Assembly: GCA_965199855.1 (NCBI GenBank)
Contig: OZ241326.1
Location: 608,001-672,000, forward strand
Origin: a bacterium
GTDB taxonomy: Bacteria; UBA8248
Direction: 5' to 3'
Length of the DNA: 64,000 nt
The notes beneath the pieces were generated by a model. It was not told the origin of the DNA. It made no database searches and was given only the letters and a program-made list of their open reading frames with translations. Below, in pieces: positions 37,977 through 43,841 of the stretch. The translations under genes and the position numbers were made by a program. Every line of letters begins with the position of its first letter. The first letter of the stretch is position 1.

Positions 37977-38579
37977 TCATTTTGACTGCATGAGCGTCTC
38001 GATAAAGCATTTCGCGTGAGGGGACGCTTCCTGAACTTTGGCCGGATCCAGCGTCGCCAGAATATCGAAGCCGTGCGAGCCCTTGTCGTAGCGGCGTTTC
38101 GCAGTCTCTCGGGCGGCTTGCCCGAGGCCGTCAAGAACGTCCTTTTTGGAAATCTCTTCGATTTGCGGATTCGCCGGCAGCGCGCTCTCCCGAAAACCCT
38201 GGCCATAAAACTCCCCGAGCGCGTTCTTGTCCGCAAGAAACCAGGACTCCATAACCTGCACCATGAAATGGCACTGATCATTGCTCGCCTCGCTGGGTCG
38301 TTCCCATGAGTCATGCTCCCGCTCTTCAAGGTGTTGCCATGGGTCTTTTGCTCTTATCGGGTCTTCGGAGTCCACGAGAAGGATGGCGGTTGAATCCTTG
38401 ACGTTCTGAATATGAAACTTGAATCTTTCGTAAGCGTCCCTGCGAGTGCCGCAGGCAACGATTCCCGGCATTCGTCCGCTCAATCCCGCCTTCTCGATAA
38501 AAATCCTGAAGCCTTTGCGGCACGCCGTTCTCTGCGATGTCCGCGCGCCGCCGCCTTCTACGAAGAGCTTGACGCTCAC
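37977..38579 (-). CDS. DUF4276 family protein (TOPRIM-like)
   Basis: LFVEGGG, LLVDSED, MVQVMESWFLAD, YDKG. GTGA overlap with the ATPase stop codon. Confidence 0.85.
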   Translation of the reverse strand: MSVKLFVEGGGARTSQRTACRKGFRIFIEKAGLSGRMPGIVACGTRRDAYERFKFHIQNVKDSTAILLVDSEDPIRAKDPWQHLEEREHDSWERPSEASNDQCHFMVQVMESWFLADKNALGEFYGQGFRESALPANPQIEEISKKDVLDGLGQAARETAKRRYDKGSHGFDILATLDPAKVQEASPHAKCFIETLMQSK

Positions 38580-39772
38580 CACCGATTTCCCCCGATCTCT
38601 CCGCTTGTCCATAGCTCCCCGAGCCGATATTTTTCCAGCCAGGGTTTGAGTTCCTCCGCGTCGAGGCGGCGAAGCCGCGTCGCCCCGTCGGATTTCTCGC
38701 ACACGATTACGGCTTCCGGGACGTCCGTGAGCGCGTCCACGAGAATGTCGGAGTGCGTCGTGACGAAGAGCTGGCTGCGCGAGGACGCCTCGACCAGGAG
38801 TTTCGCCACCTCCGGAATCACGTCCGGGTGCAGGCCGGTCTCCGGCTCCTCGATGCAGATAACCGGCGGCGGGTCCGGATGGCAGAGCACGGCGAGCAGG
38901 CAGAGATAGCGCAAACTCCCGTCGGAGAGCCGCGTGGCGGGCACGGGATGCTGAAGGCCCTCTTCGTGGAAGAACGTTTGGACTGCGCCGTTATTTATGT
39001 TGGGGACGATATCTTCGACCGACGGGTAGAAATCCCTTATCCGGTCCAGCATCCGGCGTTTTACGGGGGGGCGGTTTCTCAAATCGCTTAGCACCAAACC
39101 GAGATTCGAAGCGTCCTCCAGAAGGTAATGCTGTATGGAATCGACCGCTGCGGATAGACGGGGCGGCTTGTCGCGCTTGAAACTCCATTCGCGATAGAAA
39201 CGGATGCGCTCGAATTGCTCGACCAGGTAGGTCAGCGCCGGATAGGAGTCGGGGTCTCGCCTCTGCGACAGAATCGACTGATCCGGAATCATTTCTTCTC
39301 GCTTCAAACCGCGCTCGCGTTCGCCCCCATCTTCATAGAAAACATTGAGCACCGGGTAACCTTCTTTATAGTCGTAATAAAGGTATGGCGTATCATTGTC
39401 CTGGTATGGCTTCTCGTTCTCTATCGCTTCGTCCTTGAGCGTGAAGCGCGAGCCGGTTTCCGTGAATGACAAGCGGTATCTGAGCGGTTGAGGTCCCTTC
39501 GGATATTCAACGGTGACGTCCACAGTCGCCGTGTTGAGGCCGGAAGCTCCCTTCCAAAACCAATCTCGGACGCCGCCACCTTTTTGAATCGGCTCTTGAA
39601 TGCTTCCGGGCGCGGCCGCCAGAAGCGACAGCACTTCGATCAGGTTGGATTTCCCGGAAGCGTTCGGCCCGATGAGGACGTTCAGCGGCTCAAGAGGAAA
39701 TTCATCGTCCCAGGAGTCGTAGGAGAGAATGTTGTCCAGACGGATCGTTCGGATAAACCTCTTTCCTTCCAT
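38576..39772 (-). CDS. AAA_21 / ABC-type ATPase (SMC/OLD/AbiEii-like)
   Basis: LNVLIGPNASGKSN, LSDGS, IEEPETGLHP, VTTHS. Lower GC than the flanks. Confidence 0.9.
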   Translation of the reverse strand: MEGKRFIRTIRLDNILSYDSWDDEFPLEPLNVLIGPNASGKSNLIEVLSLLAAAPGSIQEPIQKGGGVRDWFWKGASGLNTATVDVTVEYPKGPQPLRYRLSFTETGSRFTLKDEAIENEKPYQDNDTPYLYYDYKEGYPVLNVFYEDGGERERGLKREEMIPDQSILSQRRDPDSYPALTYLVEQFERIRFYREWSFKRDKPPRLSAAVDSIQHYLLEDASNLGLVLSDLRNRPPVKRRMLDRIRDFYPSVEDIVPNINNGAVQTFFHEEGLQHPVPATRLSDGSLRYLCLLAVLCHPDPPPVICIEEPETGLHPDVIPEVAKLLVEASSRSQLFVTTHSDILVDALTDVPEAVIVCEKSDGATRLRRLDAEELKPWLEKYRLGELWTSGEIGGNRW

Positions 39773-39888
39773 CCCCCGATCTCCTCTCGCCGCTAATGGC
39801 GAATGGCTCCAATCTATCAGCCGTTCGCTCGAATTTGTCGAGTCGTTCGTTCATCAGCGCCCGGGCGTCGGGACGCCGGCCCCCCCCT

Positions 39889-40338
39889 CTACCCCCGCTT
39901 GGCGAAGAACTCCCGGAACCTGTCGGCGAGGGGGGCGGCGCGCCAGTCGAAGCCGGTGGCGTCCGCCGCCCGCTCCATCTCCTCCGCCGTCCAGCCGCCC
40001 TCCTCCGCCAGGTGATGCAGCGAGCAAATCCCGGCCCGCCCCGTCGCCTTTCAGTGGACGAAGGCGGGCCCTTGGGCCTTCGCCTCGCGCAGCGCGCGAC
40101 TCACCTCGGCGAGGGAGTCCGGGCTGAACTCGACCGGCGAGACGGGGACGTTGACGTAGCGCATCCCCAGCCGCTCGGCCTCGGCGCTTGCGCGTTCGGG
40201 GGGAAGCGCGCCCTGATCCTCGTCGGGGAAGCGCGTGTTGATGATGGTCCTGACGCCTCTGGCGGCGAGGGCCTCGAGATCGCCGGGGGCGGGCTGCGAG
40301 CCGAAGGCGACATCCTCCGAAGCGTGGAAATAGTCCAT
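39889..40338 (-). CDS. Selenoprotein: DUF442/PTP-like (rhodanese-phosphatase fold) sulfurtransferase or phosphatase with Sec at the catalytic site
   Basis: GSQP..L..GVRTIINTR..E N-terminus. Reads VH-TGA-KATGR (HCxxxxR equivalent) at 40053-40051, continues 53 codons in frame to TAG at 39891-39889, and has a SECIS-like hairpin. Confidence 0.85.
40011..40048 (-). promoter_or_regulatory. Putative bacterial SECIS element of the DUF442-like gene
   Basis: Upper stem GCGGGC/GCUCGC begins 11 nt after UGA, loop CGGGAUUU, imperfect lower stem. Confidence 0.65.
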
Positions 40339-40409
40339 GAGAAGCTCCATGCGAAAGCGGGCGCGCCGCCGTCGGCGCGCTTCCCGAAAGAGGAGAGCCG
40401 GCGGCGCGG

Positions 40410-40970
40410 CTAGCCGTTCGCCGCGCCCTCGACGCTGAACGGCTCGCCGTTCACCTCGACGGTGGACTTGAGGGGCACCGGCTCCGTGATGAGGCTCTCG
40501 GCGAAGCAGCCGTTCCTGGCGTTCTTGATCAGGCGGGCGAGCCTCTCGGCGGGCTCGTCCGACTCCACCCGCAGGTGGGTGTCCACGGCCTCCCACTTGT
40601 TGAACACCGTGCCCTTCAGGACGGAGCCGCCCAGGGTCTTGCGGAACCGGACGGAGACGCTCGCCCCCTTGATGGTCATCTTCATCATGTGCGCGTACCG
40701 CGACACCTGGGTGAGCAGTCAGAAGCCCGTCGCCATCGCCAGATAGGCCATCGGCGTGGGGTAGCGCCCCGTTCCGCCTATCTGCGCCCCCTCGTCGCAG
40801 AAAATCTCGTGCTCGCCGGCCACGCCGCGCTTGAGCTGGAGCGAGCCCTCGACCATCTCGACGCGGACGGTGCTGTCCGTGTAGAGGCCCCGGGCGGGGA
40901 GCTCCGGCTTGTCGATGACGCGCTCGCCGGGCGTCGTGGAGGTGCTGTGTCCGTCAATCGGCCCTTCCAT
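40410..40970 (-). CDS. Selenoprotein: OsmC/Ohr-like protein with Sec at the first catalytic Cys
   Basis: DEG..GG.G..PTPMAYLAMATGF-TGA-LLTQ (TGA at 40721-40719) joins two same-frame ORFs. Second Cys in NGCFAES. GAGGAGG RBS. Confidence 0.9.
40682..40718 (-). promoter_or_regulatory. Putative bacterial SECIS element of the OsmC-like gene
   Basis: GUG-(bulged U)-CGC-GGUAC-GCG-CAC stem begins 12 nt after UGA. The bulged U and GU in the loop resemble the E. coli fdhF SECIS. Confidence 0.75.
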
Positions 40971-41204
40971 GAATATCCTCCTCTCGTGGATGCGCGGTTC
41001 GGTGGTTTCCCCTTGCGCGGACAGGATAGGGCAAACGCGGGCGCGGGCATAGCTCCCGGCTCCCCGGGGCGGGAGGGGCGATTGCGGCGCCGCGGCAGGC
41101 CTGCTAAACAGAAGGCCCGCCGGTCGAATGGCGCACCCGCCTTTGGCGCGCGCAGGGAGCGGGGCGAACGCCCGCCTTTCCTTTTTTCGGGAGGAGACAC
41201 CGAC

Positions 41205-41603
41205 ATGTTCAACAAGGTGCATCACATCGGGGTCGCCGTCCGCGACATGGACGCCGCCATCGCCCTCTATGCGGGCATGGGCGCGAAACTGCTCGCGCGC
41301 GAGACCTCCGCCGACGGCTCGACCGATCTGGCCATGCTCGATCTGGGCGGCGACCTCATCGAACCCATCTCGCCGCTCAGGGAGGGGACGAATCTCGCCC
41401 GGTTCATCGAGACGCGCGGCGAGGGCCTCCACCACGTGGCCTTCGACGTGAAGAACATCGACGGGGTTCTCGCGGACATGAAGGCGCGGGGCTTCGAGCT
41501 CATCGACGAGAAGTCGAGGCGCGGCTTCGGCGGGCACCTCATCGCCTTCATCCAGCCCGGGAGCTCGATGGGGACGCTCTGGGAGCTGGTGGAGGACGTC
41601 TAG
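41205..41603 (+). CDS. mce: Methylmalonyl-CoA epimerase (VOC family)
   Basis: HHIGVAV, RGEGLHHVAF, LIDEKSRRG, IAFI.P...GTLWEL. Confidence 0.82.
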   Translation: MFNKVHHIGVAVRDMDAAIALYAGMGAKLLARETSADGSTDLAMLDLGGDLIEPISPLREGTNLARFIETRGEGLHHVAFDVKNIDGVLADMKARGFELIDEKSRRGFGGHLIAFIQPGSSMGTLWELVEDV

Positions 41604-41904
41604 GCGCCTTCTCCCGCCCCGAGCGCGGCCGCGTCTTCCGTCAGAAGACAGCAGTTGGAGACGCTTGCCCGCGCGCGCTGATTCGCCCGTCCGGAGGGAG
41701 CGCGCTCCGGAGGGCGTATGCCTTTCCCTCCGCCGGTTCCACGGCTTCGAGCGCGGCATGAGTCTCCCAAGCTCCTTTCCTCGCCCGGAAAGCCTCGTTA
41801 TAGCCTCGTTCGGCGCGAAATGGCGACTTCCTCCTTCCCGGGCGAAGGGGATTCGCCGCTTCCCCCCTTCCCAAAGGCGGCGGGTCGGGGTAGGATTCAG
41901 CGGG

Positions 41905-42040
41905 AGCCTGCGAAGGATTCGACCGGCCGGGTCTCGCGCGGCGGGAGCCCGCGAACCCCGTCAGGTCCGGAAGGAAGCAGCGGCAAGCGGACGCTCCCGG
42001 GCGCCGCGAGGTCGCCTGGCCGGTCGGCTCCTTCGCGGGC
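41905..42040 (+). ncRNA. ffs: Signal recognition particle RNA
   Basis: Conserved GTCAGGTCCGGAAGGAAGCAGC core inside a long hairpin. Located directly upstream of dnaX. Confidence 0.95.
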
Positions 42041-42116
42041 GCGAGTCCGTTTTTCGCATCATGGCGGCCTTGTCGGCGATCAGGCGTCTCCGCCAATCGC
42101 CAGGGATGGGTTCTCG

Positions 42117-43841
42117 ATGGCCTTCGTCGGCAGCGCGAGAAAGTGGCGCCCGCAGCGCTTCGCGGATCTCATCGGCCAAGAGCACGTCAGCCGCACGCTC
42201 ACGAACGCCCTCGCCTCGGGGCGCGTCGCGCCCGCCTATCTGTTCAGCGGAACGCGCGGGGTGGGCAAGACGACCACCGCGCGCATTCTCGCCAAGGCGC
42301 TCAACTGCGAATCGGGCGAGGGGCCCCTTCCCGAGCCTTGCGACCGGTGCGCCTCGTGCGGGGAGATCGCCGGGGGGTCGCACCCCGACGTTCTCGAAAT
42401 CGACGCCGCCGCCTACACCGGCGTGGACAACGTGCGCGAGCTGCGCGAAGGGCTTCGCTACCATCCCGCGCGCGGACGCTGCAAGACGGTGATCTTCGAC
42501 GAAGTCCACATGCTCTCCCGAAGCTCCTTCAACGCCCTGCTCAAGATACTCGAGGAGCCCCCGCCCCACGTCGTCTTCATCATGGCGACCACGGAGCTCA
42601 AGGGGGTTCCCGACACGATTCTCAGCCGCTGCCAGGTGTTCGAGTTCAGGCGAATCGCCTCCTCCGTCATCGCGGCGCATCTCGCCAGGATCGCGGAGGA
42701 GCAGGGCAGGAAGATGGACGAGGCGGCCGTGAAGCTGCTCGCGCGCATGGGCGAGGGCAGCATCCGCGACGCGCAGTCCCTGCTTGATCAGGCGCTGGCC
42801 TTTTCCGCCGAGGATCCGGTGTCGGCGCAGGAGGTGGAAAAGGTGCTCGGCGTTCCGGCCGGAAGCGTCTATAAGGTGCTCGTCGAGGCGGTGATCGCGC
42901 GCGACGGCGGGAGCGCGCTCGCGGAGCTCAAGGCCGTCTTCGACGCGGGCCACGACCTCAGACTCTTCTCCTCGAACCTGCTGGAGTATCTGCGCGACTG
43001 CATGGTTCTCCTCTCGGCGGGAGACGACGAGGCGCTCTTCGACGTCGCGGCGTCGGAGATCGAGGAGCGCAAGGGCGTGGCCGGCGCGATGGACTTCGCC
43101 CAGGCGCATCAGGCGTATTCCATCCTCCAGGGGGCGGAAGCCGAACTCAGAGCCTCGGATCACCCCCAGATGACGCTCGAGGTCGCCCTCCTGCGGATGT
43201 GCCAGATCGAGCCTCTGGCGGATCTGGACGCCCTGATGGAGAGGATCGAGGGCATGGGCGCGGGCGCTCCGCCCCCGGCGTCCCCGCCGCGCCGCGCGGC
43301 TTCCTCCGCCGCGCCCGCCCGGGCTTCCGGGGAAGCCCCGGGAGAGGCCGCCGCTCCCGCGCCGCCGCCTTCCCCGTCCGGGCGAACTCCTGAAGATTCG
43401 CCCGCCTCGGAGGTCGGGGCGGAGGCGTGGGACTCCGAAGCGGCGCGCCGGGTATGGGCGGACGCGGTGGAGTCCCTGCGCCCGACGCGCCGCGCGCTTT
43501 TTCGGGGCGCCGCGCTCGACCTGGAGACCGAGGGGCTCATCCGCCTCGCCCTCGCCCGCGAGAACGCGAACGCGCAGGGCCTGCATCTGGCGGAGGAGTC
43601 CCTGCCCGCGCTCGAGGCGTTCTTCAGGGAGCATTCTCCCTGGCGCGCCAGGGTCGAGCTGGCGGGGGAGGAGAACGGCGCGCGCCCGGCGGCCGGGGAA
43701 GAGGCGGCGCAGGGCGCGAAGGGGCGCGGCGGGGCGGCGAACGAGGGCGAGGACGCCGTGATTCAGGAGGTGGTCGATCTGTTCAACGGACAGATCATCG
43801 ACATCCGCCCCCTGCGGACGCGAAAATCCAATGGAGCTTGA
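42117..43841 (+). CDS. dnaX: DNA polymerase III subunit gamma/tau
   Basis: ARKWRPQ, GTRGVGKTT, zinc Cys cluster, DEVHML, LLKILEEPP, SRC. Confidence 0.97.
   Translation: MAFVGSARKWRPQRFADLIGQEHVSRTLTNALASGRVAPAYLFSGTRGVGKTTTARILAKALNCESGEGPLPEPCDRCASCGEIAGGSHPDVLEIDAAAYTGVDNVRELREGLRYHPARGRCKTVIFDEVHMLSRSSFNALLKILEEPPPHVVFIMATTELKGVPDTILSRCQVFEFRRIASSVIAAHLARIAEEQGRKMDEAAVKLLARMGEGSIRDAQSLLDQALAFSAEDPVSAQEVEKVLGVPAGSVYKVLVEAVIARDGGSALAELKAVFDAGHDLRLFSSNLLEYLRDCMVLLSAGDDEALFDVAASEIEERKGVAGAMDFAQAHQAYSILQGAEAELRASDHPQMTLEVALLRMCQIEPLADLDALMERIEGMGAGAPPPASPPRRAASSAAPARASGEAPGEAAAPAPPPSPSGRTPEDSPASEVGAEAWDSEAARRVWADAVESLRPTRRALFRGAALDLETEGLIRLALARENANAQGLHLAEESLPALEAFFREHSPWRARVELAGEENGARPAAGEEAAQGAKGRGGAANEGEDAVIQEVVDLFNGQIIDIRPLRTRKSNGA

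Follow-up and report, generated by a model that had tools for sequence, protein, structure and literature searches.

A predicted selenocysteine form of the DUF442 family on a protein tyrosine phosphatase-type fold, found in one uncultured bacterial lineage

Identification of the gene

The gene at positions 39889-40338 (minus strand) of a 64,000-nt stretch of bacterial DNA (contig OZ241326.1 of assembly GCA_965199855.1, positions 608,001 to 672,000; hereafter the window) carries an in-frame TGA at codon 96. We conclude that this locus, a member of the DUF442 (BLH_phosphatase) family, is probably a genuine selenoprotein gene in which selenocysteine (Sec) replaces the usual catalytic Cys; from sequence comparison we put the probability of this reading at about 0.85. 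That the UGA codon is recoded to Sec appears almost certain on the same grounds. The features on which the argument is built are as follows.

39889..40338, minus strand: coding sequence of the putative Sec-containing DUF442/BLH_phosphatase protein (149 aa, TAG stop at 39889-39891), from translation
40345..40348, minus strand: Shine-Dalgarno-like GGAG, 6 nt before the ATG at 40338, read from the sequence
40051..40053, minus strand: predicted Sec codon UGA (codon 96), at the catalytic nucleophile position of the H-C-x4-R loop; TGA in 57/57 relatives
40024..40026, minus strand: codon of Cys105 (Sec+9), within the 3′ arm of the hairpin below; this Cys, a candidate resolving or ‘backdoor’ residue, is found only in the Sec clade and in the Cys-form protein nearest to it
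40019..40040, minus strand: putative selenocysteine insertion sequence (SECIS) hairpin, a 7-bp stem GGCGGGC/GCUCGCU with the apical loop CGGGAUUU at 40026-40033

Translation from the ATG at 40338-40336 through the TGA at 40053-40051 (shown as U) gives MDYFHASEDVAFGSQP...GPAFVH-U-KATGRAGICSLHHLAEEGGWTAEEMERAADATGFDWRAAPLADRFREFFAKRG*, a product of 149 residues counted from MDYF whose loop motif is H-U-K-A-T-G-R, i.e. U-x4-R. An earlier note on this DNA had placed Sec in the catalytic loop of a DUF442/protein tyrosine phosphatase (PTP)-like protein; its coordinates, its peptide, the H-U-x4-R motif and a GCGGGC/GCUCGC stem 11 nt past the UGA all proved correct when the sequence was read again. 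The ATG at 40338 was taken as the start, and not the one 12 nt upstream at 40350, because of the spacing of the GGAG and because exactly 95 residues precede Sec in 57/57 relatives. We infer that the GGAG is the ribosome-binding site, which favours the MDYF start over ATG 40350.

Family assignment and predicted fold

Profile searches were made with Cys in place of Sec, and the Pfam query was a 153-aa version of the protein (P0002). PF04273 (BLH_phosphatase, formerly DUF442) matched residues 10-106 of this version with 47.6 bits (gathering cut-off, 26.1), and the alignment spans the Sec position. The NCBIfam profile TIGR01244 (‘family sulfur transferase’) aligned at its positions 6-129 with residues 11-137 and thus extends well past the TGA. 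The DUF442/PTP-like assignment of the earlier note is borne out by the first of these scores; the second alignment shows that the peptide downstream of the TGA, whose failure to align with family homologs would have spoken against the proposal, does align with the family. Weak Pfam matches to PTP-NADK, PTP-SAK and Y_phosphatase3 were also seen, all PTP-type scores being under their cut-offs. The rhodanese domain PF00581 had no match at E ≤ 0.01 in the Pfam scan of the product; likeness to rhodaneses is functional only.

An exhaustive HMMER search produced 2052 homologs at E ≤ 0.001. From 150 listed representatives we picked 74 distant homologs, leaving out fused and short ones, and combined these single-domain relatives with 16 rows of the Sec clade and with P0014 in an alignment of 91 rows. 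Of the 74 distant homologs, 67 have Cys at the Sec column, six have Ser and one has Asp. Cys also occupies this column in P0014 (162 aa, 51% identity over 97% of the length), the closest full-length relative, which reads HCKAIGRAGVCS. In sequence alignment with Protein Data Bank entries, the TGA falls on the Cys of NMA1982 (2f46, a DUF442 protein) and on that of TpbA (4r0s). The alignments thus show Sec96, as predicted from sequence, in the place of the catalytic Cys at the start of a phosphate-binding-type loop, H-U-x4-R. A second Cys, nine residues after Sec (Cys105), is present in 16/16 rows of the Sec clade and in P0014 (17/17 together) as opposed to 0/74 distant homologs.

The 91-row alignment was used as input for an AlphaFold2 model of the full-length protein, which came out as one compact domain with a mean predicted local distance difference test score (pLDDT) of 95.9 and a predicted template modelling (TM) score (pTM) of 0.91. 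The last three predicted helices (residues 100-114, 118-127 and 138-146) all lie after the TGA, so that a product terminated at 95 aa would be without the catalytic loop and without three helices of the fold. The top Foldseek matches of the model were the DUF442 structures 2f46 (TM scores 0.75/0.78) and 3gxh; dual-specificity and PTP-type phosphatases (TpbA, Tk-PTP, PTPMT1 and PFA-DSP1) ranked after them.

Conservation of the TGA and of the downstream frame

A six-frame search of 51 genomes of the phylum gave 59 match rows at E ≤ 1e-5, 57 of which have an in-frame TGA. The family of this genome supplies all the TGA-containing rows (this genome itself and 34 of its 41 other members), and none are in the 10 genomes outside the family. 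The 57 genes extracted, which represent 35 genomes of this single family, have identities down to ∼40%, and in 57/57 the TGA stands at codon 96; P0014 and the 67 Cys-bearing distant homologs described above supply the other side of the TGA-versus-Cys comparison that the earlier note had proposed. The frame after the TGA runs for 53-59 codons in the relatives, with the exception of L054, which is cut by a second TGA. Close orthologs therefore do not really end at VH, an outcome that the earlier note had named as fatal to its proposal: their DNA keeps the TGA together with the conserved 53-59 codon frame.

The ratio of non-synonymous to synonymous substitution rates (dN/dS) past the TGA (codons 109-147) is 0.19 among orthologs and 0.18 among paralogs; before the TGA (codons 1-95) the values are 0.17 and 0.11. 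By this measure, purifying selection acts equally on the codons before and after the TGA.

In most genomes of the genus the gene is present in two copies, mutually 40-48% identical. The second Sec-type DUF442 gene of the present genome (G000:C1:2363529-2363981, minus strand; locus L035, 992-1444) is 47% identical to the first and has the same TGA and hairpin. In the paralog at L054 (1106-1438, minus strand; genome G009) the second TGA stands where the others have a Trp codon (FD-W to FD-TGA), and a stem position of the hairpin has gone from GC to GU; the copy may be in decay, or the sequence may contain an error.

The source genome of the window (3.04 Mb, one contig) encodes the machinery for Sec: selB (372 bits), selA (548 bits), selD (344 bits) and tRNA-SeC(tca), all above curated cut-offs. 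Its selD (G000:C1:2985603-2986568, minus strand; locus L010) carries an in-frame TGA of its own (ARAGG-U-GSKLG) with a hairpin ∼11 nt downstream, and is the usual Sec-type SelD. Across the phylum selA was found in 49/51 genomes, the two misses being genomes of 79% and 67% completeness.

The SECIS hairpin

The putative SECIS stem starts 10 nt past the UGA and its loop 17 nt past it; one further G-U pair lengthens the GCGGGC/GCUCGC stem noted earlier to 7 bp. In the bacterial SECIS (bSECIS) model, as given in section 5 of PMC13188914, the loop has 3-9 nt and the stem 4-16 bp, a G lies within the first two loop positions, the distance from UGA to loop is 16-37 nt and the minimum free energy (MFE) is at most -7.5 kcal/mol. 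With a loop of 8 nt, a stem of 7 bp, a spacing of 17 nt and a consensus energy of -11.1 kcal/mol, the hairpin falls within all four published constraints.

RNAalifold applied to the 57 genes recovered exactly this stem, and its 7/7 pairs are standard in 57/57 genes. Variation in the stem is slight: one pair is G-U in 35 genes and A-U in 22, while two others show one single-sided change each. Among the 46 genes first compared, the codons GGG, GCC, GGG, AUU, UGC and UCG are each invariant, and GGG encodes Gly101 in 43/43 genes with Gly at that site. The mean codon entropy is 0.14 bits over the 7 SECIS columns versus 1.10 bits over 34 other conserved columns; judged from these codon counts, the synonymous sites of the hairpin are frozen. 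In more distant genera the loop differs (CGGGGUUU, CGGGGUCU, CGGGAUAU, CGGGCUUU) and the stem is unchanged. A nearly invariant hairpin of this kind offers a clean natural SECIS for an uncultured lineage.

A longer lower stem in the MFE fold of the window’s own sequence was rejected: it is not conserved and its covariation is not above controls. The Rfam scan of 39500-41500 returned only a chance miRNA-like match (E 0.97).

Distribution of the Sec form

A degenerate DNA pattern for H-U-x3-G-R-A-G-I-C-S was scanned in 185,579 species, one genome each, and 44 stretches were detected. Records with the titles ‘MAG: Nitrospinota bacterium’, ‘uncultured Nitrospinaceae bacterium’ or ‘MAG: bacterium’ account for 41 of them. 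The remaining three, two in Mesorhizobium and one in Hyphomicrobiaceae, were discarded as chance matches in frames full of stops. As a control for the frequency of internal TGA codons, TIGR01244 was searched in a sample of 401 genomes from the Mesorhizobium phylum and matched in 111 of them (G446, flagged unpublished, is among these with one ordinary Cys-type match); six match rows with an internal TGA were considered as Sec forms and rejected, since in all of them the TGA is the normal stop after a ∼110-aa Cys-type protein. Six genomes of a small neighbouring phylum had no TIGR01244 match. Within the searches made, the Sec form is limited to a single uncultured lineage of family rank.

A quick maximum-likelihood tree of 101 rows combined the 57 Sec genes and P0014 with 43 of the 74 distant homologs. 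All Sec genes and P0014 fall in one clade with a Shimodaira-Hasegawa-like approximate likelihood ratio test (SH-aLRT) support of 94, P0014 having no resolved position inside it. This tree is compatible with a single Cys-to-Sec change; we do not press its direction. Two divergent truncated DUF442 proteins, P0065 (95 aa, 47% identity, ending ...FIH) and P0174 (94 aa, 43%, ending ...FVH), may on the appearance of their termini be further Sec forms, from further lineages.

Annotation and published catalogs

Among database proteins matching the read-through product, 52/56 have 95 aa (P0004 and P0022 end ...FVH), the record of this genome itself is the 95-aa form (P0209), and P0069 is a separately called 53-aa piece from after the TGA. 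Only the database gene calls end at VH, while the DNA of the orthologs continues past the TGA.

No selenoprotein model of NCBIfam release 20 matches the product. Table 1 of PMC13188914, a 2026 review of the prokaryotic selenoproteome, lists 119 families and subfamilies, with no entry for PF04273, TIGR01244 or a phosphatase-like protein; the strings PF04273, TIGR01244, NF040641, ‘phosphatase’ and ‘tyrosine’ have 0 occurrences in that review. The main texts of the deep-Sep paper, a 2022 review and the BSepDB paper are without ‘phosphatase’, ‘DUF442’ or ‘sulfur transferase’, although supplementary tables of deep-Sep and BSepDB might list the family. A full-text literature search yielded no co-mention of DUF442 with selenoprotein and no pairing among PF04273, TIGR01244 and selenocysteine; ‘tyrosine phosphatase-like’ does not occur among the literature matches listed.

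The earlier note had supposed a new or little-studied Sec form of a stand-alone PTP-like family and had proposed a comparison with published selenoprotein lists. That supposition is supported: the family is not among the 119 of the 2026 catalog, and what is new is a Sec form of a known Cys family (DUF442) on the PTP fold, missing from the current catalog. It adds a selenoprotein family overlooked by catalogs and annotation pipelines alike, whose public copies were seen cut to 95 residues, without the active site. A profile for the Sec-containing DUF442 family would correct dozens of truncated gene calls.

Genomic context

The gene immediately upstream encodes a second selenoprotein, and the loci of other genomes display two distinct neighbourhoods of the DUF442 gene.

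40410..40970, minus strand: OsmC-like selenoprotein gene, immediately upstream of the DUF442 gene (PF02566, 51.5 bits), from translation
40396-40411, minus strand: terminator-like hairpin with a T-rich run, right after the OsmC-like stop codon and between the two selenoprotein genes; weak
Loci with the order Transglut_core2 - DUF442 - ilvD: L035, L105, L106, L108, L114, L115, L038, L057 and L058 (not L110, L111 or L033)

The OsmC-like gene has its in-frame TGA at 40719-40721 (ATGF-U-LLTQ, giving the motif U-L-L-T of the UxxT type) and encodes invariant Cys58 and Cys155; the TGA is kept in 11/11 aligned loci. The OsmC-like and DUF442 genes are adjacent in 21/24 ortholog loci, all within the genus, and the OsmC-like protein is a possible functional partner of the DUF442 selenoprotein. 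The pairing suggests a selenium-dependent stress system. The arrangement Transglut_core2 (PF13369) - DUF442 - ilvD occurs in 9/12 loci examined, at the second copy and outside the genus, and is probably the older one.

Three terminator-like sites were found in 39600-41400 against 1.2 expected; the intergenic one could limit co-transcription or could be chance. No sigma-70-like promoter was found in the same interval.

Directly downstream of the DUF442 gene, and unrelated to it, an AAA_21 ATPase (398 aa, 562 bits) and a DUF4276 protein (241 aa, 259 bits), together at 37977-39772 (minus strand), match the PADLOC candidate defence system HEC-01A/B. The G+C content of this stretch is 54-60% versus 64-71% in the flanks, which gives it the look of an inserted island. 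Upstream of the selenoprotein pair, in divergent orientation, are, by eye from the translations, a small glyoxalase/VOC-like open reading frame (ORF) at about 41200-41603 (plus strand) and a dnaX-type ORF (DNA polymerase III tau/gamma-like) at 41718-43841 (plus strand).

Proposed mechanism and function

In the established bacterial Sec pathway, SelB bound to Sec-tRNA recognizes the SECIS hairpin at the ribosome. Here, SelB carrying Sec-tRNA(Sec) would be recruited by the hairpin that starts 10 nt past the UGA at 40053-40051, and Sec would be inserted as residue 96 in place of termination, giving a 149-aa single-domain protein of the PTP fold.

As to activity, the DUF442 domain of Blh is described in PMC5823870 as moving sulfane sulfur from thiosulfate to cyanide or glutathione, and an SQR-fused DUF442 domain is characterized in PMC9163753 as a rhodanese that the C94S change inactivates. 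Cys-type relatives of the present protein (P0062, P0063, P0074 and P0099, 36-41% identical) have DUF442 fused to a metallo-beta-lactamase and two rhodanese domains, or to AhpC/Redoxin. The fusion of AhpC/Redoxin with DUF442 echoes the OsmC-like adjacency at this locus. Because the characterized DUF442 domains are rhodanese-type sulfurtransferases, acting by way of a persulfide on this Cys, and rhodanese or AhpC fusions occur among the nearest Cys relatives, we favour a sulfane-sulfur carrier; by this analogy, we give about an even chance to the protein being a selenium-based sulfane-sulfur carrier or transferase. Sec96 would attack a sulfane-sulfur donor (thiosulfate, a persulfide or a polysulfide), and the sulfur would be carried as an Se-S adduct, with Arg101 and the loop amides keeping it in place, until a thiol acceptor takes it over. 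Cys105, in the helix following the loop, might resolve or protect Sec96 as a selenenylsulfide. From their adjacency in the genus, the DUF442 and OsmC-like selenoproteins may act jointly on reactive sulfur or oxygen species.

Should this reading hold, selenium use would be extended to anion-binding-loop sulfurtransferases of the PTP fold. The rhodanese selenoproteins, whose fold is unrelated, would be the parallel, and Sec would have replaced Cys convergently in the two.

Several observations weigh against a Sec-dependent sulfurtransferase, some on the side of recoding and some on that of function. The fold of the 49 nt around the hairpin has an energy of -20.6 kcal/mol and z = -1.83, and 13/200 shuffled sequences fold as well; what marks the hairpin as more than chance is the retention of TGA and hairpin together in 57/57 related genes, and not the single-sequence fold. 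There are no compensatory double changes in the stem among the 57 genes, and since no pair changes on both sides, covariation measures are not above shuffles; the argument for a SECIS is consequently one of conservation. That conservation is in part a matter of the protein, because the frozen codons also encode the conserved G-R-A-G-I-C-S. With respect to the family, the TIGR01244 score of 50.4 bits is below the curated cut-off of 85.85, and by the NCBI rule the predicted read-through product is a divergent relative of TIGR01244 and not a member. Sulfide-oxidation genes (SQR, PDO) do not adjoin the DUF442 gene in the flanks examined, and the Transglut_core2 - DUF442 - ilvD context gives no clear functional lead. 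Finally, co-transcription of the OsmC-like and DUF442 genes is not assured, because of the weak terminator-like hairpin between them.

Alternative explanations

The most serious competitor accepts a real selenoprotein and makes it a two-residue redox enzyme: Sec96 would attack an oxidized substrate held in the anion-binding loop (an oxyanion such as arsenate, a persulfide or a hydroperoxide-derived species) and Cys105 would resolve the adduct as an Se-S bond, with recycling by a thiol system or by the OsmC-like selenoprotein. Cys relays of this sort operate in P-loop arsenate reductases with a C-x5-R loop, both of the LMW-PTP and of the Cdc25 type. The restriction of Cys105 to the Sec clade and P0014 (17/17 rows versus 0/74 distant homologs) fits such a pair, as do the AhpC/Redoxin-DUF442 fusions among the relatives and the OsmC-like gene adjoining in 21/24 ortholog loci; moreover, most catalogued selenoproteins are, according to section 7 of PMC13188914, redox proteins with a Sec...Cys pair. 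Nucleotide conservation of the Cys105 codon is a confounded measure, because the codon lies in the SECIS stem, yet the Cys-form P0014 has Cys105 as well. Against a redox enzyme, the flanks examined show no ars or thiol-reductase genes, and the OsmC adjacency is limited to one genus. We consider this alternative possible but unlikely. A bolder version, in which the protein would be the first PTP-fold selenoenzyme and, more than a Sec copy of a sulfurtransferase, a Sec96/Cys105 selenenylsulfide redox catalyst in a two-selenoprotein relay with the OsmC-like selenoperoxidase within the genus, seems to us improbable; if true, such a relay would serve to remove persulfides or hydroperoxides, or to reduce a P-loop-bound oxyanion. 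A new selenium-based redox relay, whether in the Sec/Cys105 pair or in the partnership with OsmC, would make the system more interesting.

A selenoprotein acting as a phosphatase on protein or small-molecule phosphoesters is very unlikely. The dual-specificity and PTP-type structures that follow the two DUF442 structures in the Foldseek ranking, as well as the weak PTP-type Pfam matches, point that way, but those Pfam scores are all under their cut-offs and PMC13188914 catalogs no phosphatase. The loop U-K-A-T-G-R has x4 and so departs from the C-x5-R signature of classical Cys-based PTPs and dual-specificity phosphatases; since, in addition, the DUF442 domains characterized in the sources cited above are sulfurtransferases, a phosphatase role is less likely than the sulfane-sulfur carrier that we favour.

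We find it harder still to believe that the TGA is a true stop, leaving a 95-aa fragment or pseudogene with the downstream frame as a relic, even though public gene calls (52/56 at 95 aa, the own record of this genome included) end there and L054 has a second TGA. A dN/dS of 0.19, a frame kept open and in register across 57 genes with identities down to ∼40% and a hairpin whose synonymous sites are frozen are not what a relic would show; the 95-aa piece, for its part, is without the catalytic loop. An altered genetic code, with TGA read as a standard amino acid, has nothing beyond the open frame in its favour and can be practically dismissed: a dedicated tRNA-SeC, selA and selB are present, and the use of TGA as the terminal stop of 6/24 orthologs and of the genome’s own paralog contradicts it.

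Comparison with known systems

The closest characterized proteins are the DUF442 domains at the N terminus of Blh of Xylella and Agrobacterium and in the SQR fusion of Cupriavidus pinatubonensis. PF04273, the H-[C/U]-x4-R loop and the nucleophile column are common to them and to the protein predicted here, and the modelled fold is the same as that of the solved DUF442 proteins 2f46 and 3gxh. Unlike Blh and the SQR fusion, the present protein would have Sec for Cys and is stand-alone, with no dioxygenase or SQR fusion; its loop Gly is at +4 and not at +3, and it has the extra Cys at +9. It also differs in that no sulfide-oxidation operon surrounds the gene, in falling below the TIGR01244 cut-off and in that its presumed activity is inferred by analogy.

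The PTP and dual-specificity phosphatases (TpbA 4r0s, Tk-PTP 5z5a and PTPMT1 3rgo) resemble the model in overall fold (TM scores 0.6-0.75) and in the order of nucleophile, Arg loop and helix. They differ in sequence (identity 18-22%, Pfam scores under cut-offs), and the loop here is one residue shorter than theirs.

The OsmC-like neighbour belongs to a known selenoprotein family, catalogued in Table 1 of PMC13188914 under PF02566 with the motif UxxT, and has the same U-x-x-T motif; it is unrelated to the DUF442 family. The operon section of that review does not mention a pairing of OsmC-like and DUF442 selenoproteins.

The rhodanese-like selenoproteins, of which five forms are given in Table 1 of PMC13188914 (PF00581, NF041203, NF045694), are likewise bacterial, have Sec for the active-site Cys in an anion-binding loop of sulfurtransferase type and carry the SECIS within the coding region. 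They belong to another family and, in contrast to the PTP fold and H-U-x4-R loop predicted here, have the motifs UxxS, UxxG or CxU. Since in them Sec replaces the active-site Cys of a sulfurtransferase, they are the precedent for the selenium-based sulfur transfer that we suggest for the DUF442 selenoprotein.

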